This document shows positions 2,042-11,252 of a stretch of DNA of 16,270 nt, piece by piece. The stretch is from an uncultured Steroidobacteraceae bacterium (GTDB lineage: Bacteria; Pseudomonadota; Gammaproteobacteria; Steroidobacterales; Steroidobacteraceae). The notes below the pieces were generated by a model, which worked only from the letters and a program-made list of their open reading frames with translations, was not told the origin of the DNA and made no database searches. Location: contig CAZPJE010000209.1 of NCBI GenBank assembly GCA_964586725.1, forward strand, positions 1 through 16,270, in the 5' to 3' direction. The position numbers and the translations under genes were made by a program. Every line of letters begins with the position of its first letter. The stretch's first letter is position 1.

Positions 2042-2245
2042 ATGAAGGACAGGACTCACGACGTCGCCGAAGTCGAGGCGCTCTGGCTTGACGAGGCTGA
2101 GAGACGTGCCGACGAGATCGACCGCAGAGAAAGCGTGCTTGTCTCGGGCGACGAGGTGGCGCCTAAAGCCCGTCTCTTGCTCGAGACATGCCGGTCTGAC
2201 TCTCGAAGTGACACGGTCCGCGATTCAACCGATACGAGCACCTAA
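2042..2245 (+). CDS. Second TIGR02574-type antitoxin-like protein (paralog of 984..1216) with a unique 20-aa Ser/Thr/Asp/Arg-rich C-terminal tail. It has no ParE/RelE partner and sits directly upstream of the nucleotidyltransferase.
   Basis: ATG at 2042 with GGAGG 10 nt upstream. EVEALWLDEAERRADEIDRRESVLVSGDEVAPKARLLLE is clearly related to the first antitoxin. It ends 8 bp before the next gene. Confidence 0.6.
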   Translation: MKDRTHDVAEVEALWLDEAERRADEIDRRESVLVSGDEVAPKARLLLETCRSDSRSDTVRDSTDTST

Positions 2246-2252
2246 TGCGCTC

Positions 2253-3047
2253 ATGATTCCCCTGGAGATCCGCGAAGAACTGCTTAAGCGCATGCGCTCT
2301 GCAGAGTTGGAGCATGATGTCCGTATCGTGCTCGCCGTGGAGTCCGGCAGTCGAGCCTGGGGCTTTGCATCCCCGAACAGCGACTATGACGCGCGCTTCA
2401 TCTACGTGAATCGGCCGGAGTGGTACCTGTCGGTATCGCTCGAGGAACAGCGCGATGTTATCGAGTACCCCATCGTCGATGACGTTGATCTGAACGGTTG
2501 GGATTTGCGCAAGGCCCTTCGCTTGATGTGGAAATCCAACCCGGCGTTCGTCGAGTGGATTCAGTCGCCGATTGTCTACCGTGAAGCGAACCAGTTTGGC
2601 GCCGACGCCCGCGGGTTGCTGCCGCACGTCTACTCCGTCGAGCGCGGCATGCATCATTACCGCAGCATGGCGAAGACCAATTATCGCGGCTATCTGCGGG
2701 AGGCAGAGGTGCCCCTGAAGAAGTACTTCTACGTTTTGCGCCCACTGCTGTCCGTGCGATGGCTCGAGCGGTACGGCACGCCTGCCCCGATCGAGTTCCC
2801 GCGCCTCATGCCACTGGTGGAGGATGATCGGGAGCTGACACAGGCGATCGACGCGTTGTTGCAGCAGAAGCGCGCAGCGCCAGAGCTGGGTCGTGGCCCT
2901 GCCGTGCCGGTGCTGCAGGCGTTCATCGAGCAGGAGCTGGACAGGCTCGAAGCCATCGACCCGCCCGCCGTTCGTCCGGGCGCAGCCGCGCCACTACTCA
3001 ACCGGTTCTTTCTACGGGTCCTTAACGAGACCTGGTCACCGACCTGA
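2253..3047 (+). CDS. Pol-beta-superfamily nucleotidyltransferase of the RlaP type (PF10127-like 'RNA repair pathway' NTase), 264 aa.
   Basis: N-terminal RIVLAVESGSRAWGFASPNSDYDARFIYV carries the hG[GS]...D.D nucleotidyltransferase signature typical of this family. It lies beside rtcR/rtcBA as reported for RlaP genes. The 2088 ORF start would overlap the antitoxin gene, so ATG 2253 is preferred. Confidence 0.7.
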   Translation: MIPLEIREELLKRMRSAELEHDVRIVLAVESGSRAWGFASPNSDYDARFIYVNRPEWYLSVSLEEQRDVIEYPIVDDVDLNGWDLRKALRLMWKSNPAFVEWIQSPIVYREANQFGADARGLLPHVYSVERGMHHYRSMAKTNYRGYLREAEVPLKKYFYVLRPLLSVRWLERYGTPAPIEFPRLMPLVEDDRELTQAIDALLQQKRAAPELGRGPAVPVLQAFIEQELDRLEAIDPPAVRPGAAAPLLNRFFLRVLNETWSPT

Positions 3048-4619
3048 CGCCGTCTCCCAATCCAGCCCGAATCGCGCAAGGTATTTTCGCAGTCGATCGC
3101 TGTCGTTGGTCACGGAGCGCTGCAGTCGGGACGACGCGAACAACGTTCGACCTGCATCCGCCAAAGAACGGGATCGGCGGCAGATGTCGAGCACACCCGC
3201 CAACTGAATCTGGTCGAACAGATCGAGGTCGCGCGCAACGCTCGCCGGCAGTGCGGGAGCGGCCGCGGCGTCGGAATCCGACATCCATGACCCGCGCAGG
3301 CGCTCGATCTCTGCGGCGACAGCCGGCTCGCCGATGCGGCCGCCGTCCGCCAGCGTCGCGAGCCGGGTGATGGAGGCGGACAGCTCGCGGAAGTTGCCGC
3401 GCCACTGGGCCTCGGGCGAGGTCGCAAAGCGCAGATAACGGCTGCGCGCTTCGGTATTGAAGCGGACGGTCGTGGCGTTCGCGGCCGCGAAGCGTTCCAG
3501 TTCGTACTCGATGTTGGGTTCGATGTCTTCCGGCCTGTCCCTGAGGCCTGGCAGCTGGAACGTCCACAGGTTGATGCGCGCCAGCAGGTCCTCGCGAAAG
3601 CGGCCCGCCCGCACGGCGTCGCGCAAGTCGCAGTTCGTGCCAGCAACGAGCTGGAAGTCGCTCTGGGCTTCCTTATCGCCGCCCATAGGCAGGAAGCGCT
3701 TTTCCTCGATGGCCTTGAGGAGCATGGCCTGCTCGTCGAGCCCGAGTTCGCCGATCTCGTCGAGGAACACAATGCCGCCGTCGGCCTTGCGCAGCAGGCC
3801 CGGGCGGTCACTCTGCGCCCCGGTGAACGCGCCCTTCACGTGTCCGAACAGCGTGGACATCGCCGCATCGCCCCGGAGCGTGGCGCAGTTGACCTCGACG
3901 AACTCGCCGCGGATCTGGTGCTGCGCCTTCTTGAGTTCGTAGAGTCGGGTTGCGAGCTGCGACTTTCCGGCACCCGTGGGGCCGACGAGCAGCACCGGAG
4001 CCTTCGAGCGGATCGCCACCCGTTCGAGTTCGTCGATCATGCGATTGAAAGCGGCGTTGCGTGTCGGGATTCCCGACTTCAGGAACGTCGTGCTCTCGCG
4101 CCGCTCGTCCGCGAAGCGTGCGGCGATCTGGTCGTAGCGGGAGAGGTCGAGGTCGATGATCGAGTAGCTCCCGACCTTGCCCGTCGCTTCGCGCGCCGGC
4201 GGTGAGGTTTGCAGCAGCGACCCCGGAAACGTGCGTGCTTCGGCCAGCAGGAACAGGCAGATCTGTGCGACGTGGGTACCGGTCGTGATGTGGGCGAGGT
4301 AGCGCTCGTGCTCGAGGTCGAAAGAGTACTTTCGGACGAACTCCCGCAGGGCGCCGTACATCTGCTCGAAGTCCCACGGGTCGCGCGGATCGACGCGGTG
4401 CAGGCGTACCGTGGTCTCGGGCGACACCTCCTGGATGTCGTCGCGAACCTGCTCCGCCAGCCGCTGATGTGGGCGGGCATGCATGAGCTCGAGGCGACCG
4501 ACGACGAGATCATCCTGTTGGCAGATGGACACAGTCGGGCGCCAGCGCTCCCAGCGGCCCGGGCCCCGGCCGCCAGCGTCGAGCGTCGAGCCCAGGAAGC
4601 CAATCACGACCGTCTTCAT
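3036..4619 (-). CDS. rtcR: RtcR: sigma54-dependent transcriptional activator with N-terminal CARF-type sensor domain, AAA+ core (GPTGAGKS Walker A, GAFTGA sigma54-contact motif) and C-terminal HTH; 527 aa.
   Basis: N-terminus MKTVVIGFLGSTLD is like E. coli RtcR. GPTGAGKSQLA and GHVKGAFTGA are present, and the length is right. It is divergent from rtcBA. The 3' end overlaps the RlaP gene 3' end by 12 nt. Confidence 0.9.
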   Translation of the reverse strand: MKTVVIGFLGSTLDAGGRGPGRWERWRPTVSICQQDDLVVGRLELMHARPHQRLAEQVRDDIQEVSPETTVRLHRVDPRDPWDFEQMYGALREFVRKYSFDLEHERYLAHITTGTHVAQICLFLLAEARTFPGSLLQTSPPAREATGKVGSYSIIDLDLSRYDQIAARFADERRESTTFLKSGIPTRNAAFNRMIDELERVAIRSKAPVLLVGPTGAGKSQLATRLYELKKAQHQIRGEFVEVNCATLRGDAAMSTLFGHVKGAFTGAQSDRPGLLRKADGGIVFLDEIGELGLDEQAMLLKAIEEKRFLPMGGDKEAQSDFQLVAGTNCDLRDAVRAGRFREDLLARINLWTFQLPGLRDRPEDIEPNIEYELERFAAANATTVRFNTEARSRYLRFATSPEAQWRGNFRELSASITRLATLADGGRIGEPAVAAEIERLRGSWMSDSDAAAAPALPASVARDLDLFDQIQLAGVLDICRRSRSLADAGRTLFASSRLQRSVTNDSDRLRKYLARFGLDWETASGR

Positions 4620-4779: not shown

Positions 4780-4795
4780 TGGCACAGCGGTTGCT
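4780..4795 (+). promoter_or_regulatory. Sigma54 (-24/-12) promoter of rtcBA: TGGCAC-agcgg-TTGCT.
   Basis: Exact match to the TGGCAC-N5-TTGCW consensus, 81 bp upstream of the rtcB ATG and next to the sigma54 activator gene rtcR. Confidence 0.8.
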
Positions 4796-4875: not shown

Positions 4876-6099
4876 ATGAGCGACACGAACTACGAAACGA
4901 TGCATGTCGAAGGCGGCCGCCACGTGAAGATGTGGACGCGCGGCGTGCCGGTTGAAGACGACGCGCGTGCGCAGCTCGCGAACACCGCGCGGATGCCGTT
5001 CATCTTCAAGCACCTTGCAGTGATGCCGGACGTGCATGTCGGCAAGGGCTCGACGATCGGCAGCGTCATCCCGACGATCAAGGCGATCATCCCGGCGGCG
5101 GTTGGCGTGGACATCGGCTGCGGCATGATGGCGGCGAAGACCACGCTGACGGCGGCGGACCTGCCGGACAGCCTCGCGGCGGTGCGTAGCGCGATCGAGC
5201 GCGCCGTGCCGCACGGTCGTACGGTCGGCAAGCGCGACAAGGGTTCCTGGGGCCACGAGCCGCCGCAGAGCGTAGACGCGGCGTGGACCGACCTGGTCGA
5301 GGGCTTCGAGCGAATCAGCACGAAGCACGGCCGGCTGAAGAACACGAACAACCGTGTACACCTCGGCACGCTCGGAACAGGCAACCACTTCATCGAGGTG
5401 TGCCTCGATGAGCACGACGCGGTGTGGTTCATGCTGCACAGTGGTTCGCGCGGCGTCGGCAACGCGATCGGCAGCTACTTCATCGAGCTGGCGCGAGAAG
5501 ACATGCGCAAGTGGATGATCAATCTGCCTGATCGGGACCTGGCGTATTTCCCGGAAGGGACGGACCACTTCGACGACTACGTCGAGGCGGTCGAGTGGGC
5601 GCAGCGCTTCGCGCAGCGCAACCGCGAAGTGATGATGACCAACGTCATCCGCGCGGTGCGCAGCGTGCTGCCGAAGCCGTTCGAGAGCCACGTGGAAGCG
5701 GTGAACTGTCACCACAACTACGTGTCCCGCGAACACCACTTCGGCGAGAACGTACTCGTGACTCGCAAGGGTGCGGTGCGCGCGCGTCGCGGTGAGCTCG
5801 GCATCATTCCGGGCAGCATGGGTGCGCGTTCGTACATCGTGCGCGGCCTCGGCAACGAGGAGAGCTTCCACAGCTGCAGCCACGGGGCTGGCCGGAAGAT
5901 GTCCCGCACCGAAGCGCGCAAGCGCTTCACGGTCGAGGAGCACGCTGCGGCGACGGCCGGTGTCGAGTGTCGCAAGGACGAGGCCGTCATCGACGAGACG
6001 CCGGCCGCGTACAAGGACATCGACGCAGTGATGGCCGCGCAGAAGGACCTTGTGGAAGTTGTCTACACGTTGAAGCAGATCGTCTGTGTGAAAGGATAG
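4876..6099 (+). CDS. rtcB: RtcB RNA 3'-phosphate/2',3'-cyclic-phosphate to 5'-OH ligase, 407 aa.
   Basis: AAGGA RBS 7 nt upstream. Hallmark motifs MPDVHVGKGSTIGSVIPT, HSGSRGVGN, the NCHHNY region and GxxRxG-like SHGAGR are present. Confidence 0.95.
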   Translation: MSDTNYETMHVEGGRHVKMWTRGVPVEDDARAQLANTARMPFIFKHLAVMPDVHVGKGSTIGSVIPTIKAIIPAAVGVDIGCGMMAAKTTLTAADLPDSLAAVRSAIERAVPHGRTVGKRDKGSWGHEPPQSVDAAWTDLVEGFERISTKHGRLKNTNNRVHLGTLGTGNHFIEVCLDEHDAVWFMLHSGSRGVGNAIGSYFIELAREDMRKWMINLPDRDLAYFPEGTDHFDDYVEAVEWAQRFAQRNREVMMTNVIRAVRSVLPKPFESHVEAVNCHHNYVSREHHFGENVLVTRKGAVRARRGELGIIPGSMGARSYIVRGLGNEESFHSCSHGAGRKMSRTEARKRFTVEEHAAATAGVECRKDEAVIDETPAAYKDIDAVMAAQKDLVEVVYTLKQIVCVKG

Positions 6100-6101
6100 T
6101 C

Positions 6102-7115
6102 ATGATCGAGATCGATGGAGCACAAGGCGAGGGCGGCGGGCAGATCCTGCGATCTGCCCTGTCGCTTTCCATGTGCACGCAACAGTCGTTCCGTATTCGC
6201 GCGATCCGGGCGGGTCGCGCGAAGCCGGGACTGCTGCGCCAGCATCTGACCGCGCTGCGCGCGGCGCAGACCGTCTGCGGCGGCACCGTGGAGGGCGACC
6301 AGCTCGGGTCCACCGAGGTGGAGTTCCGGCCGAGTGCGGTCGTCGCGGGCGACTATCGCTTCGATGTCGGCAGTGCCGGCAGCTGCACGCTCGTGCTGCA
6401 GACGGTACTGCCGGCGCTGATGCTGGCCGCGGGGTCGAGCACGGTGCGCATTACCGGTGGCACGCATGCGAAGGCGGCGCCGCCCGTGGACTTCCTGCAG
6501 CTCGCGTTCCTGCCATTGCTGGCCCGCATGGGTCCGCGCGTCTCGATCGACATGACGCAGCCCGGGTTCTACCCGCGCGGTGGTGGCGTGGTCACGGCTC
6601 GCATCGAGCCGACGCCGGCGCTCGTGCCGCTGCAACTGATGGACCGAGGCGCCTGGGTGGGTGGCGAAGCCTGCGCGTACGTTGCTGCCATCCCGATGCA
6701 TGTCGCCGAACGCGAGCTCGAAGTCGTGGGTCGGACGCTCGGGTGGGGCCCGCAGCAGCGCCGCATCAAGCCCTGGGCCAATGAGTTCGGCCCGGGTAAC
6801 GCGCTGACGCTCACGCTGACCCATGAGCACGTTACAGAGGTCTGCGCGGCGTTCGGCGAGAAGACCGTGCGCGCCGAGGACGTGGCAGGCGCAGCGGTGC
6901 GCGAGGCACAGGGCTACCTCGCGACGCGCGCGGCGGTCGGTGCGCATCTGGCTGATCAGTTGCAGTTGCCGGTCGCGTTGGCGGGAGACGGGTGTTTCAC
7001 GGCTGCAGAGATCACGCCGCACTTCGTATCGAACGGCGGCGTGATCGAACAGTTCACCGGTCGGCGCTTCGAGTGCGAGCGAGACGCAGGACGAACGGTC
7101 GTGACGCTGCGATGA
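6102..7115 (+). CDS. rtcA: RtcA RNA 3'-terminal phosphate cyclase, 337 aa.
   Basis: ATG lies 2 nt after the rtcB stop with AAAGGA inside the rtcB end. Starts MIEIDGAQGEGGGQILRSALSLS, the signature cyclase N-terminus. Length matches E. coli RtcA. Confidence 0.9.
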   Translation: MIEIDGAQGEGGGQILRSALSLSMCTQQSFRIRAIRAGRAKPGLLRQHLTALRAAQTVCGGTVEGDQLGSTEVEFRPSAVVAGDYRFDVGSAGSCTLVLQTVLPALMLAAGSSTVRITGGTHAKAAPPVDFLQLAFLPLLARMGPRVSIDMTQPGFYPRGGGVVTARIEPTPALVPLQLMDRGAWVGGEACAYVAAIPMHVAERELEVVGRTLGWGPQQRRIKPWANEFGPGNALTLTLTHEHVTEVCAAFGEKTVRAEDVAGAAVREAQGYLATRAAVGAHLADQLQLPVALAGDGCFTAAEITPHFVSNGGVIEQFTGRRFECERDAGRTVVTLR

Positions 7116-7147
7116 ACGGTTGCATGAGGAATTTGTCTCAAGGTGTA

Positions 7148-7176
7148 TTGACAGGAGATTCGGCGCGCGTAGGATG
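7148..7176 (+). promoter_or_regulatory. Sigma70-like promoter candidate TTGACA-N16-TAGGAT just downstream of rtcA.
   Basis: Perfect -35 hexamer with a 16-nt spacer and a TAnnnT -10. It would drive the small ORF/RNA at 7186-7411. Confidence 0.3.
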
Positions 7177-7185
7177 CGCGCCCCT

Positions 7186-7305
7186 ATGAACTACGCCTTC
7201 AACGCAACAACCCCGCGACTGCACGACATGCAGCGCGCCGCGCTTCGGAATCCGGCGATTCCGTCGAGCGCGCCGCCGCGCGTCGATGAGGTCCTGATGC
7301 GTTAG
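7186..7305 (+). CDS. Small ORF (39 aa, MNYAFNATTPRLHDMQRAALRNPAIPSSAPPRVDEVLMR) or non-coding RNA body, lying between the candidate promoter and the terminator.
   Basis: ATG at 7186 with no clear SD. It is bracketed by a promoter-like element and a strong terminator. Coding status is uncertain. Confidence 0.2.
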   Translation: MNYAFNATTPRLHDMQRAALRNPAIPSSAPPRVDEVLMR

Positions 7306-7371
7306 CTTCCGATGCGAGTCGGAGGCTGACCACACGGCAGCCTCCGGATGCTCTCTACACGAGACCCCGGC

Positions 7372-7411
7372 AGGCCACCGTCTGCCGGGGTCTTTGTGTT
7401 TTGGGCCTGAC
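7372..7411 (+). terminator. Rho-independent terminator: 11-bp GC-rich stem GACCCCGGCAG/CTGCCGGGGTC, then TTTGTGTTTT. It is preceded by a second 9-bp hairpin at 7329-7355.
   Basis: Stem-loop plus U-tract read directly. It ends the rtcBA/small-ORF transcription unit. Confidence 0.7.
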
Positions 7412-7526
7412 GGTCTGACAAACGGCATTTCGTGCTGCGGTGCGGGTTCAACAGCCCGCCTGGCGCGCCTGTGCTCCGGCAACGGATCGCGCAGGGGTGT
7501 ACCGCACGGGTGTGCGTGTCGGAGCC

Positions 7527-7598
7527 AGCAAGCTAGCTCAGTTGGTAGAGCAACGGACAGAACTCCGTGTGTCGCGGGTTCGATTCCCGCGCTTGCAC
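7527..7598 (+). tRNA. tRNA-like gene on a tRNA-Phe-type scaffold (D-arm TAGCTCAGTTGGTAGAGCA, variable loop GTGTC, T-arm GCGGG-TTCGATT-CCCGC). It is non-canonical: 6-nt anticodon loop (CAGAAC, no U33), A1:A72 mismatch, no encoded CCA. Probably a pseudo-tRNA or a tRNA-mimic RNA.
   Basis: Manual cloverleaf: acceptor AGCAAGC/GCTTGCA (6 of 7 pairs), perfect D and T arms, anticodon stem ACGGA/TCCGT with only 6 loop nucleotides. Total 72 nt, against 73 expected without CCA. Confidence 0.5.
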
Positions 7599-7852
7599 CT
7601 CCTTGAGGTGGAGTGATGGTTCATTTGAGCGCGGAGCGAAAGCTTCGCATCGGGATGTCCCGGTGGGTCGATGACGGACACGACGTCGCGACACACAACG
7701 AGGGTACCGCCTTGAGCGGCCCACGGCGTGCGATGGCAGGCGCTGCACTGGCAGAGAGCCGCATCGTCCTCCCGGGTCGACCGCGGTGCCGGCGTGGGCC
7801 CATCCCGACCTATTCGACGAAATGCGCAAGGTGCGCAGGGAAGGAGAGTGTG

Positions 7853-9001
7853 ATGAAGATGATTCGGCGACTGACGGTCGCCCAGCACGAGCGGGTGCTC
7901 GTGTTCCGCGACCGACGCTTCGAGACGATTCTCGAGCCGGGCGTGCACTGGCTGTTCGACCCGCTGCGGCGTGTCGAACTGCAGGTGTACGACCTCACGG
8001 TGGCGGAGTTCGAACACCCGCGCGCTGAGTTCCTGCTGCAGGACGCGCGTGCTGTCATGGAACGCTACTTCATGATCGTCGAGACCGGCGATACCGAAGT
8101 GGGTGTGGTCAGCAAGCTGGGCCGTGTGACGGGCCTGCTGGGTCCGGGCCGTCGTCAGCTGTACTGGAAGGGTCCGATCGACGTGACCGTCGAGAAGATC
8201 GATTTCACGGCGACGATGGAATTGCCGGGTGCGCTGGCCCGTGTCCTGGTGCGCGCGAAGCAGCCGCTTGCGGCGCAGGTGAACGAAGCCGTCAGCGCGA
8301 TCGAAGTCCCGGACACGTCCGTCGGCATGCTGATCGTCGACGGTGAGTTCGTGCGGGTGCTCGAGCCGGGTCTGCACGCGTTCTGGAAGTACCAGCGCGC
8401 GCTGAAGACCGAGCTGGTGGATCGGCGCGTGCAGACGATGGAAGTGGCGGGTCAGGACATCCTGACGCGCGACAAGGTCAGTCTGCGCGTGAACCTGACG
8501 GCGCTCTGGCAGGTGGTCGACGCGGTGCAAGCCCGCGCAGCCGTCGTGAACGTCGTCGAGTCGGTCTACAAGGAATTGCAGTTCGCGCTGCGTGCGGCCG
8601 TCGGCGGCCGCTCGCTCGACGAACTGCTCGGCGACAAGGGCGTGCTCGATCGCGAGATCGGCGCGGCCGTGGCGACGCGGCTCGAAGTCCAGGGCGTGGT
8701 GGTGAAGTCGGTGGGCGTGAAGGACGTCATTCTGCCGGGTGAGATGAAGACGATTCTCAACCAGGTGGTCGAGGCGGAGAAGCGCGCACAGGCGAACCTG
8801 ATCCAGCGCCGCGAGGAGACGGCAGCGACGCGTTCGCTGCTGAACACCGCGCGGCTCATGGATGACAACCCGACGCTGCTGCGGCTCAAGGAGCTGGAGA
8901 CGCTCGAGAAGGTGACCGAGAAGATCGGGCACCTGACTGTCTTCGGCGGCCTCGAGGGTGTGATGAAGGACACGGTGCGCATCCAGCTGCCGGCACGCTG
9001 A
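7853..9001 (+). CDS. SPFH/band-7 (slipin-like) domain protein, 382 aa, with an N-terminal duplicated beta-rich region.
   Basis: AAGGAG RBS 6 nt upstream of ATG 7853. The C-terminal half (QDILTRDKVSLRVNLTALWQVVD...EAEKRAQANLIQRREETAA) is typical of SPFH domain plus coiled coil. The upstream ORF extension to 7613 lacks an RBS. Confidence 0.8.
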   Translation: MKMIRRLTVAQHERVLVFRDRRFETILEPGVHWLFDPLRRVELQVYDLTVAEFEHPRAEFLLQDARAVMERYFMIVETGDTEVGVVSKLGRVTGLLGPGRRQLYWKGPIDVTVEKIDFTATMELPGALARVLVRAKQPLAAQVNEAVSAIEVPDTSVGMLIVDGEFVRVLEPGLHAFWKYQRALKTELVDRRVQTMEVAGQDILTRDKVSLRVNLTALWQVVDAVQARAAVVNVVESVYKELQFALRAAVGGRSLDELLGDKGVLDREIGAAVATRLEVQGVVVKSVGVKDVILPGEMKTILNQVVEAEKRAQANLIQRREETAATRSLLNTARLMDDNPTLLRLKELETLEKVTEKIGHLTVFGGLEGVMKDTVRIQLPAR

Positions 9002-9453: not shown

Positions 9454-10221
9454 CTACTGACGCTTCTGTGCATACTCGTTCGGTGTCAGGTGCCCGAGCG
9501 AGCTGTGGGGTCGATGATCATTGTAATCGATCCGCCACGCCTCGATCTTCGCGCTGGCATCGTCGATCGATTCGAACTGCATCACGTTCAGGCACTCATC
9601 GCGCAGTCGCCCATTGAACGACTCGATGTGCCCGTGTTCAGTGGGTTTTCCCGGATGGATGAAGTCGAGCTTCACGCCTCGCCGATACGCCCATTCCTCG
9701 AGCACTTTCGACGTGAACTCCGTGCCGTGATCGATAGTGATCGATACCGGTGTGCCAGCTCGCTCGATCGCCCGCTCCAGGGGCGCGACAACGTCGCGTC
9801 CGCCAAACGAAAACCGCGACTCAAGCAACGGAGTCTGACGACTAAACTGATCGACGATGGGGAGCACCCGAAACGCCCGGCCGCTGAACAACTGGTCATG
9901 GACGAAATCCATGCTCCAACGCTCGTGCGTACGCCGCGCCTGCGGAACAGGGCCACGATGCAGGCTCATGTGCTTGCGACGACGCACGCGCATGCGGATT
10001 TGCAGGCCCTCGAAGCGATACCAGCGATACACGCGCTTCCGGTTCACCTTCCAGCCCTCTCGTCGCAGCATGACGTGGATACGCTGATAGCCGAAGCGCG
10101 GCCTCGCGTGCGCGATCTCGCGAATGCGAAGGCGCAGAGCCGATTGGTCTCTGGCCTGGCTCTTGGCGTACCACCCGCCATGGGAGAACTGCCCCAGCTC
10201 TATAGCTTTGCGCACGCTCAC
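9454..10221 (-). CDS. IS3-family transposase OrfB (integrase/DDE catalytic core), 255 aa as a stand-alone ORF. Normally expressed as an OrfAB fusion by -1 frameshifting.
   Basis: Characteristic IS3 OrfB sequence (...DHGTEFTS...YNDHRPHSSLGHLTPNEY). The -1 frame continuation from orfA (..VVRKK|ALRPALRRALAEW..) reads straight into it. Confidence 0.85.
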   Translation of the reverse strand: MSVRKAIELGQFSHGGWYAKSQARDQSALRLRIREIAHARPRFGYQRIHVMLRREGWKVNRKRVYRWYRFEGLQIRMRVRRRKHMSLHRGPVPQARRTHERWSMDFVHDQLFSGRAFRVLPIVDQFSRQTPLLESRFSFGGRDVVAPLERAIERAGTPVSITIDHGTEFTSKVLEEWAYRRGVKLDFIHPGKPTEHGHIESFNGRLRDECLNVMQFESIDDASAKIEAWRIDYNDHRPHSSLGHLTPNEYAQKRQ

Positions 10222-10271: not shown

Positions 10272-10538
10272 TCAGAGCTTTTTTCGGACGACTTCTCCCA
10301 GGATGTGCTTGTCGAGCGTGAGCTCGGCGACCAGACGCTTCAGCCCCGCGTTCTCATCCCGTAGCTGACGCATCTCCCGGATCTCGGTCATGCCAAGCTT
10401 GCCGTACTTCCTCTTCCACAACTAGAAGCTCGCCTCGCTCACGCCCAGCTGCCGACACACGTCGACCACGGGCGTGCCGCCCTCAGCCTGGCGCAGCGCG
10501 TAGGTGATCTGCTCGTCCGTAAACCGTTTGCCCTTCAT
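10272..10538 (-). pseudogene. IS3-family transposase OrfA (HTH) interrupted by an in-frame amber codon (TAG at 10424..10422, where family members have Tyr in EASFYxWKRKYG).
   Basis: Translation MKGKRFTDEQITYALRQAEGGTPVVDVCRQLGVSEASF*LWKRKYGKLGMTEIREMRQLRDENAGLKRLVAELTLDKHILGEVVRKKL. The stop falls in the otherwise conserved SF(Y)LWKRKYG motif. Confidence 0.7.
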
Positions 10539-10704
10539 GCTCCTCGTCTCCTCTGGTGGGAAACTTCAGAGCCAGCTTAGTCAAACTCCAAACTGTCCGG
10601 AAATCGGGGACCACGTCACCGGGGGCAGACCACAGGTGCGGCCCTCGTTCCTTGGCGGCTGGACTGGCGGCGCTGTTCCGCTGTCAGCGCCCGGAACGGC
10701 TAGC

Positions 10705-11252
10705 ATGGCGTTGCTAGCGCTGCTGGTCGCCAGTTGTGGTGGCGGTGGCGACGGTGGCTCGTCATCTCTCGCGCCAGCGCCGCCGCGCGTACCGCGCTCG
10801 CCGCCACGCCTTCATGCACCACGCCAGCGGGCCCGAACGTGACGCAGCGCCTGGGTTTCCTCTACGTCTCCTCGGCCCATGACAGCCCGTCATCGGTCGG
10901 CGGGCTCGCGGGCAACTACACGCTGGCGATCAGGCCCGTCAGCAACATGCTGAACGTCAATTCGAGTGGCGTCGTCTTCGCGATGTACGGCAACGGTCCG
11001 CGCTGCACTGTGATCGGGCGTTTCAGCGTGATCGACGCCCGCTTCAATCCCTATCGCGCTGAGTGGATCTTCGCCGCCTGCGCGGTGCCCGGATCGCAGG
11101 CCTACGAGGGCGTCACGTTCACGGGCTTCGCGCAGCGGACTACGAGCACGCCGAACTCTGGAGCGGCTCGCGGCAACGCGATCTACGTCCTGCTGACGGC
11201 GACGGTGCAGAATCGTCTGTCGTGGATCAGCGTTGTATACGATCCGAACTGA
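10705..11252 (+). pseudogene. Putative lipoprotein gene with an apparent frameshift. The signal peptide and lipobox (MALLALLVASC|GGGGDGG) are in frame 1 to 10842; the mature beta-rich domain is in frame 0 (10734..11252).
   Basis: The lipobox LVASC is directly readable. The Pro/Arg-rich continuation of frame 1 looks non-native, while frame 0 continues as plausible protein. An indel near 10760-10800 is inferred. A sequencing error is equally possible. Confidence 0.4.

Follow-up and report, generated by a model that had tools for sequence, protein, structure and literature searches.

A gene for a tRNA-like RNA lies at 7527..7599 on the plus strand of a 16,270-nucleotide (nt) stretch of DNA from an uncultured Steroidobacteraceae bacterium (assembly GCA_964586725.1, contig CAZPJE010000209.1; the whole stretch is referred to here as the window). 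It is followed on the same strand by a gene for a slipin, a Band-7/SPFH protein, and preceded by the genes for the RNA ligase RtcB and the RNA 3'-phosphate cyclase RtcA. In the reading that we favor as probable, the element is a selectively maintained, nondecoding RNA of the b7a-tRNA type, which belongs with the slipin and, through the slipin, with RtcB, RtcA, RtcR, and RlaP, and which acts in trans as a partner in repair. It is a newly found case of a predicted, uncharacterized class, and we infer its mechanism. ARAGORN, the Rfam tRNA model, folding, and covariation in homologues all identified the element.

A tRNA body with a nondecoding anticodon loop

The element reads AGCAAGC-TA-GCTC-AGTTGGTA-GAGC-A-ACGGA-CAGAAC-TCCGT-GTGTC-GCGGG-TTCGATT-CCCGC-GCTTGCA-CC. 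Its acceptor stem pairs AGCAAGC (7527-7533) with GCTTGCA (7591-7597) and leaves A1·A72 unpaired; the D arm is GCTC-AGTTGGTA-GAGC, the variable loop is GTGTC, and the T arm is GCGGG-TTCGATT-CCCGC. The anticodon stem (ACGGA/TCCGT) closes a loop of only six bases (CAGAAC, 7558-7563) in which position 33 is A, and the 3' end is A72-C73-C74-U75-C76, with no encoded CCA. These details, from the arms and the 6-nt loop lacking U33 to A1·A72 and the missing CCA, had been described in the original prediction, a reading of the letters alone, and all of them were confirmed in the sequence.

Detection by ARAGORN and by a tRNA covariance model, which had been proposed as a check, returned a tRNA in both cases. 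ARAGORN placed a tRNA at 7527-7599 (reported as "tRNA-???") with a two-base "anticodon" that could not be determined. The Rfam tRNA model matched from end to end at 49 bits (gathering score, 29 bits; E = 4.9e-8), its sole defect being an anticodon-loop region one base short, and a scan of 7100-7900 with Rfam at relaxed thresholds found the tRNA only. When the 73 nt were folded in isolation, the cloverleaf was the minimum-energy fold at -29.7 kcal/mol and made up 64% of the ensemble (z = -2.8). The traits of a canonical tRNA body, a cloverleaf with G18G19 and the T-loop, are present, and those of a canonical decoding tRNA, a 7-nt anticodon loop with U33 and an anticodon kept among orthologues, are absent. 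With a 6-nt loop, A33, and a loop sequence that differs in nearly every lineage, the RNA is nondecoding, as had been claimed at the outset.

The gene starts 411 nt past the stop codon of rtcA (7115), and a sigma-70-type promoter, a 39-codon open reading frame (ORF), and an intrinsic-terminator-like hairpin lie in between. The earlier description of the gene as immediately downstream of rtcBA was thus mistaken. The start of slipin is 254 nt downstream of the tRNA-like gene.

Selection on the tRNA body and freedom of the anticodon loop

Related loci (given L numbers here) were gathered first through RtcA homologues and then through slipin homologues, and only loci with readable DNA were counted. 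Each of the 12 related loci that were read carries a tRNA or tRNA-like gene approximately 250 to 450 nt upstream of slipin on the same strand. Slipin identity to the window was 96% in L033/L034, 88% in L035, 79% in L036, 78% in L038/L039, 77% in L037, 74% in L040/L041, 72% in L047, 71% in L045, and 49% in Burkholderia cenocepacia (L042).

The closest relatives of the locus are Steroidobacteraceae metagenome-assembled genomes. L011 and L007, whose RtcA is 98% and 79% identical to that of the window, carry the same element with the 6-nt loop CTGAAC, and apart from this loop they differ from the window in the D loop only. A pattern scan specific for the loop length, run on one genome per species, gave one true homologue (L019, a Steroidobacteraceae metagenome-assembled genome); a metagenome scan with such a pattern gave none. 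Together with L033 and L035, five same-clade relatives share the 6-nt loop, and it is therefore not a sequencing error, although an indel had initially been named as a possible cause.

Cloverleaf pairs were counted over 12 distinct sequences. Standard pairs occupied 96% of the cells, and 10 of the 21 pairs had changed on both sides, for example, 31:39 (A:U, U:A, C:G, and G:C), 2:71 (G:C and A:U), and 52:62 (G:C and A:U). Of 500 column shuffles, not one came up to the cloverleaf in any of five measures, and registers slid by 1 to 3 columns left only 30 to 48% of the cells paired. Pair 1:72 was unpaired in 10 of the 12 sequences, so that the mismatch itself looks conserved. In close loci, the identity of the tRNA-like RNA to the window was 0.96 to 0.97, compared with 0.79 to 0.82 at four-fold sites of slipin; in distant loci, the corresponding values were 0.80 to 0.84 and 0.58 to 0.70.

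The anticodon loop is the fastest-changing part of the element and differs in nearly every lineage. Loops of 6 nt were found in the window and L033 (CAGAAC, with A33), in L011, L007, L019, and L035 (CTGAAC, with U33), and in L037 (TGAGAA). Loops of 7 nt were found in L036 (CCCAGAA, with C33), L038 and L040 (CTGATAA, which resembles Ile-GAU), L045 (CCTATAA, with C33), and L047 (CTTGGAA), and in B. cenocepacia the anticodon arm consists of a stem of 6 bp with a GAAA tetraloop as its cap. As judged from these homologues, the tRNA body, namely, the acceptor stem, the D arm with G18G19, and the T arm with its TTCGA loop, is under purifying selection, while the anticodon loop is free to vary in both length and sequence. 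A body that is constrained and a decoding end that is not contradict a working tRNA and a pseudogene alike.

Other candidate features were rejected in the same comparison. An encoded CCA is not a family feature, being present in three loci only (L037, L040, and L045) and in two of these as part of the next hairpin. Mimicry of 16S rRNA by the 3' trailer CACCTCCTT (7596-7604), which is presumably identical to the 3' tail of 16S rRNA, was treated as a coincidence because the trailer is not kept outside the window's clade; its equivalent is CAGCCACCTG in L037 and L040 and GCACTCCC in L038. An inverted repeat (7567-7587 and 7676-7696) that could unfold the T arm is not kept in L011 or L007.

Slipin as the constant partner

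Across the loci compared, the constant partner of the tRNA-like RNA is the downstream slipin, not rtcA. The idea of a tRNA mimic that belongs to an Rtc neighborhood stood in part: RtcR, RtcB, RtcA, and RlaP are all encoded in the window, but the constant partner had been missed. RtcB or RtcA adjoins the unit of tRNA-like RNA and slipin in L007, L033, L035, L037, L040, L042, and the P0136 contig. In L040 and the P0136 contig, RtcB directly follows slipin, and in L037 an RtcB-family gene lies approximately 1.6 kb downstream. The RtcB of the window is 68 to 72% identical to the RtcB encoded after slipin in L040 and B. cenocepacia, which places these proteins in the same close RtcB lineage.

A slipin/Band-7 gene as constant partner places the element in the predicted b7a-tRNA class. 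According to the description in a citing preprint (bioRxiv 10.1101/312249), Burroughs and Aravind predicted in 2016 that tRNA-like RNAs, termed b7a-tRNA, are encoded beside Band-7/SPFH and RtcB genes; in that description, the b7a-tRNA "strongly resembles an authentic tRNA" and frequently has RlaP as a neighbor, and the RNA was unvalidated as of 2018. No experimental follow-up of this prediction was found in the literature searched. The window shares with the class, as described there, a tRNA cloverleaf gene, a same-strand Band-7/SPFH neighbor, and RtcB in the neighborhood. Membership of the element in the class, which is known here through the preprint's description, is accordingly very likely. 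Compared with that description, the anticodon loop of the window's clade is cut to 6 nt, and several relatives have no rtc genes nearby.

A YrlA-type Y RNA, which had been raised as a possible relative, does not fit. The window RNA resembles YrlA in being a tRNA-mimicking noncoding RNA of an RtcB repair operon, with a putative scaffold protein as partner and a conserved elbow of D and T loops. However, it has ordinary tRNA topology, whereas YrlA's tRNA-like domain is closed by a Ro-binding stem. The YrlA model (Rfam RF02553) gave 16.6 bits against a threshold of 69 (E = 1.8), and no Ro60/TROVE (rsr) gene was matched among the plausible ORFs of the window that were scanned.

The arrangement differs between lineages. 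In the window's clade, the unit of RNA and slipin is found downstream of rtcBA, with a sigma-70-type promoter, a small ORF, and a terminator-like hairpin of its own. In contrast, in B. cenocepacia, Citrobacter, and Escherichia coli the unit stands directly behind a TGGCAC-N5-TNGC sigma-54 promoter of the RtcR-dependent type. In B. cenocepacia and Citrobacter, rtcR and this promoter point away from each other; no rtcR adjoins the E. coli locus. The full order in B. cenocepacia is rtcR, sigma-54 promoter, 5' domain, tRNA-like RNA, slipin, RtcB, and RlaP; downstream of slipin, RlaP stands alone in Citrobacter and E. coli. In Salmonella, rsr-yrlBA occupies the place, behind an RtcR-type sigma-54 promoter, that the unit of RNA and slipin occupies in B. 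cenocepacia.

The E. coli (L044, 3472-4001) and Citrobacter freundii (L043, 3556-4004) regions lie beside lysC and contain the sigma-54 promoter, an RNA with T-arm-like hairpins, slipin, and RlaP. The full E. coli region was present in 1,629 of 5,426 complete E. coli genomes (approximately 30%). Among the features listed for the E. coli and Citrobacter matches, the slipin gene alone is named, with no RNA feature. In Pseudomonas aeruginosa, the rtc locus holds the SPFH protein PaFlo8 (PMC13086221). RlaP has been reported to extend the 3' ends of damaged RNA by one or two nucleotides (PMC12776372).

A conserved leader from promoter to slipin

Seven loci can be aligned over the whole of the approximately 700 nt between the promoter and the start of slipin, and the noncoding stretch from the promoter to the 3' hairpins spans 7148-7670 on the plus strand of the window. 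It begins with the sigma-70-type promoter TTGACA-16-TAGGAT (7148-7175; promoter scan), which is followed by a GC-rich GCGCGCC. The seven aligned loci all have an unchanged TTGACA and keep the -10 box in register, and TTGACA is also found in L045 and L047. The small ORF (7186-7305; 39 codons) is nearly leaderless, with its start 38 nt downstream of the -35 box's first base. In ten loci it has 20, 32, 38, 39, 40, 43, 44, 47, or 48 codons, its ATG lies 38 to 39 nt after the start of TTGACA, and its stop codon keeps the same aligned position (TAG, or TGA in L040). The peptide is not conserved, and the middle of the ORF carries insertions and deletions through which the frame is kept. Since the frame survives them, the ORF is probably translated, and we infer from the alignment that the act of translation, not the peptide, would be what matters.

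Alternative hairpins lie beside the stop codon (7306..7348), as found by sequence reading, by folding with and without a masked ribosome footprint, and by alifold: segment 2 (TCGGAGG) can pair with either segment 1 (CTTCCGA) or segment 3 (CAGCCTCCG). The terminator scan placed a terminator-like GC-rich hairpin with a U-rich tract at 7361-7404. This hairpin is kept in seven loci with covariation at 3 pairs, and its U tract is weaker outside the window's clade. Because it forms whether or not the stop-codon region is masked, a simple attenuator is not evident and was rejected.

Upstream of the tRNA-like gene, RNAalifold identified a 5' domain of approximately 75 nt (7434-7507), a three-way junction with the T-loop-like hairpin GCGGG-TTCAACA-GCCCGC. 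In this domain, 97% of the cells are paired and both-side changes occur at five pairs. Shuffles matched the counts of both-side changes in 37 of 500 cases and those of pair types in 64 of 500, which makes the covariation support weaker than that for the cloverleaf. A covariance model built from nine loci, with B. cenocepacia outside the training set, matched B. cenocepacia at L042 3529-3605, 70 nt upstream of its tRNA-like gene (36.3 bits; E = 3e-5). No Rfam family was found for the 5' domain.

Downstream of the tRNA-like gene, RNAalifold identified a hairpin directly after the acceptor stem (7599..7613; 4 bp, CTCC/GGAG, with a 7-nt loop and covariation at 2 of 4 pairs), a GNRA-capped hairpin (7631..7648; GCGGAGC-GAAA-GCTTCGC, with compensatory changes at two pairs in relatives), and a small conserved hairpin (7651..7662; CGGG-ATGT-CCCG). 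The GNRA hairpin accounts for the conservation near 7616, where a candidate upstream ORF (MVHLSAERKL...) was rejected because neither its ATG nor its frame is conserved and it meets an early stop in L007 and L011. In five lineages, namely, the window, L036, L037, L038, and L040, the loop of the first of these hairpins has the look of an anticodon loop (Y-U-NNN-R-N; TTGAGGT, CTGGTAA, CTGCCAA, CTGTAAA, and CTGTTAC), and the true anticodon loop is degenerate.

Between the tRNA-like gene and slipin, the promoter and terminator scan detected neither kind of site, and cotranscription of the two is therefore the simplest reading. No conserved promoter motif was present between the terminator-like hairpin and the 5' domain in the aligned loci. 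No earlier description of this leader architecture was found in the literature searched, which left out the class-defining 2016 paper.

Proposed mechanism and competing explanations

For the way in which the element works, action in trans is a reasonable, if tentative, proposal. The tRNA-like RNA would be transcribed together with slipin from the promoter at 7148-7175, with readthrough of the terminator-like hairpin; when RtcR is activated, transcripts that began at rtcBA may reach it as well. tRNA-processing enzymes would release the RNA from the slipin transcript, and the free RNA would act as a cofactor or scaffold with the slipin in RtcB-type repair of damaged tRNA or rRNA, with no role in translation. 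This pairing of slipin and RNA is modeled on that of Ro60 and Y RNA in rsr-yrlBA-rtcBA operons. For the release step, the E. coli thrU-tyrU-glyT-thrT-tufB operon is comparable: its tRNA genes are cotranscribed with a protein gene and are probably released by RNase P and 3' processing, so that a tRNA-shaped unit likewise lies upstream of a coding gene in one transcript. However, these are true decoding tRNAs with conserved anticodons, whereas the window RNA has no usable anticodon loop.

Several observations weigh against a trans-acting partner in repair. L036, L038, L045, and L047 have no rtc gene within approximately 4 to 5 kb; with rtc genes absent nearby in these four lineages, slipin is the constant partner and the link to RtcB is frequent, not obligatory. 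At the equivalent position in Citrobacter and E. coli, only a T arm is recognizable, and a full cloverleaf is not universal. The window-clade hairpin at 7361-7404 resembles a strong terminator, which makes the source of transcription of the tRNA-like RNA uncertain. Finally, the conservation of the flanking 5' domain and 3' hairpins would be expected just as much of a leader that acts in cis.

Such a leader is the main rival, although we consider it unlikely. The cloverleaf, the 5' domain, and the hairpins would together be a structured 5' untranslated region that sets slipin expression, for example, as an entry site for RNase P or RNase E, as an mRNA-stabilizing 5' structure, or, with the small ORF and the terminator-like hairpin, as a sensor of translation status, and the tRNA-like part would not exist as a free product with a separate function. 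Conservation along the entire leader of approximately 700 nt, which runs from the promoter up to slipin, speaks for it, as do the frame-conserved small ORF that ends exactly at the alternative hairpin pair, the lack of either a detected promoter or a detected terminator in the interval from the tRNA-like RNA to slipin, and the tie of the element to slipin at every locus read but to rtc genes only at some. However, a full L-shape, with G18G19, the T-loop, and a 12-bp acceptor/T stack, far exceeds the needs of a processing site. In B. cenocepacia, the RNA comes directly after the RtcR-type sigma-54 promoter, which is the place of yrlA in Salmonella, and the presence of the terminator-like hairpin in both folding states tested leaves no simple attenuator switch visible.

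The tRNA mimic might instead be one module of a composite, translation-sensing RNA that covers approximately 490 nt (7180-7670), a suggestion to which we also give a low probability. The small ORF appears to be selected only for in-frame reading to a fixed stop, which abuts the alternative and terminator-like hairpins; beyond these come the covarying 5' domain and then the tRNA mimic. When ribosomes or tRNAs are damaged, the small ORF would go untranslated, the leader would refold, and the tRNA mimic and slipin would be released. This would amount to an RNA-repair response independent of RtcR.

An improbable alternative to the repair partner is a sentinel or decoy. As bait for tRNA-cleaving toxins, the RNA would be cleaved and thereby spare the real tRNAs or yield fragments with 2',3'-cyclic phosphate ends that switch on RtcR, an activator known to respond to tRNA fragments ending in a cyclic phosphate (PMC7790460). 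An arms race would also explain why the loop changes fastest, with close relatives already divided between A33 (window and L033) and U33 (L011, L007, L019, and L035), but relaxed constraint explains this variation equally well. In addition, a loop of 6 nt or one capped by a tetraloop is a poor mimic of an anticodon loop, known anticodon nucleases are sequence specific, and several loci carry the RNA without RtcR nearby.

It is highly improbable that the element is an unusual but working decoding tRNA, such as a tRNA-Phe or tRNA-Ile. Some distant homologues do look canonical (CTGATAA in L040 and L038; A1:U72, A73, and CCA in L045) and score 57 to 64 bits with the Rfam tRNA model. The window element, however, combines a 6-nt loop with the lack of U33 and CCA, the "anticodon" differs in nearly every lineage (with C33 in two), and 1:72 is unpaired in 10 of 12 sequences. 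Equally improbable is the decayed tRNA pseudogene or integration-site scar that the original prediction had also offered: an IS3 transposase ORF lies 1.8 kb downstream, but the cloverleaf covaries across the 12 sequences and is more alike between loci than synonymous sites are, loci that do not carry this insertion sequence (IS) still have the element in synteny with slipin, and the window holds no second copy of the tRNA 3' half as the direct repeat bounding an island.

The findings bear on two questions, namely, which RNAs are repaired by RtcB in bacteria and for what reason tRNA-like RNAs are encoded in its operons. The window and its relatives form a comparative series in which selection keeps the tRNA body and not the anticodon, and the larger conserved RNA context of promoter, small ORF, 5' domain, and hairpins offers concrete targets for mutation. 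The unit occurs where experiments are feasible, in B. cenocepacia and, in a reduced version, in approximately 30% of complete E. coli genomes. For the SPFH gene, PaFlo8 in the rtc locus of P. aeruginosa PA14 points to a further tractable organism. A specialist would not be surprised by the element itself; what brings the RNA-repair question closer within reach is the frame-conserved small ORF, the 5' domain with its covariation, and the tractable hosts.

Short-loop tRNA matches and genes of the window

The other matches of the loop-length pattern scans included tRNA-Phe genes that are normal except for one A lost from the CTGAAAA loop (L013, L015, L017, L022 to L024, and L027). These genes, mostly metagenome assembled, are probably homopolymer assembly errors and call for caution in searches for short-loop tRNAs. 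Actinobacterial tRNA-Phe-like pieces whose loop is CTGAAG (6 nt) and whose 5' acceptor strand is odd (L014, 7260-7299; L018, 5392-5431; L030, 367-406) were nearly identical across three metagenome sources and are unrelated to the window element. In L018, the sole actinobacterial locus checked, the neighbors were an FMO-like monooxygenase and a dehydrogenase, and neither slipin nor RtcB was found.

On the plus strand of the window, a ParDE-like toxin-antitoxin pair (650-1506; ParD-like antitoxin, PF09720; ParE-like toxin, PF05016) lies just upstream of the gene for the nucleotidyltransferase RlaP (2088..3047; PF10127, E = 1e-84). ParE/Phd pairs were also seen near the slipin unit in L036 and L038. 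The gene for RtcR, a sigma-54-dependent activator, is on the minus strand (3036..4619; NF038308, 817 bits). The plus-strand site TGGCACAGCGGTTGCT (4780-4795) is a candidate RtcR target promoter of the sigma-54 type; as a match it is by itself no better than chance, and its support is its position upstream of rtcB. The RtcB gene (4876..6099, plus strand) had matches to RtcB-family NCBIfam models, every one under its curated cutoff, and the homologous gene in L007 and L033 was called as PF01139 RtcB. The RtcA gene follows on the plus strand (6099..7115; NCBIfam NF003246, 430 bits).

The slipin gene (7853..9001, plus strand) encodes 382 amino acids (aa), with a Pfam Band_7 match (E = 7e-31) and stomatin structure matches; its N-terminal 156 aa gave a second Band_7 match (tandem SPFH). 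An N-terminal extension from 7613 was rejected, being unconserved, and gene callers and relatives place the start at 7850/7853. The IS3-family transposase ORF (9454-10221, minus strand) separates slipin from a 112-aa ORF (10504-10842, plus strand). In L033, an ORF of 112 aa comes directly after slipin at the same spacing, which makes the IS of the window look like a recent insertion. An AAA-type ATPase gene of approximately 370 aa lies directly 3' of slipin in L035 (3308-4426) and L037 (6253-7368), and the equivalent position in the window is held by the IS and the 112-aa ORF.

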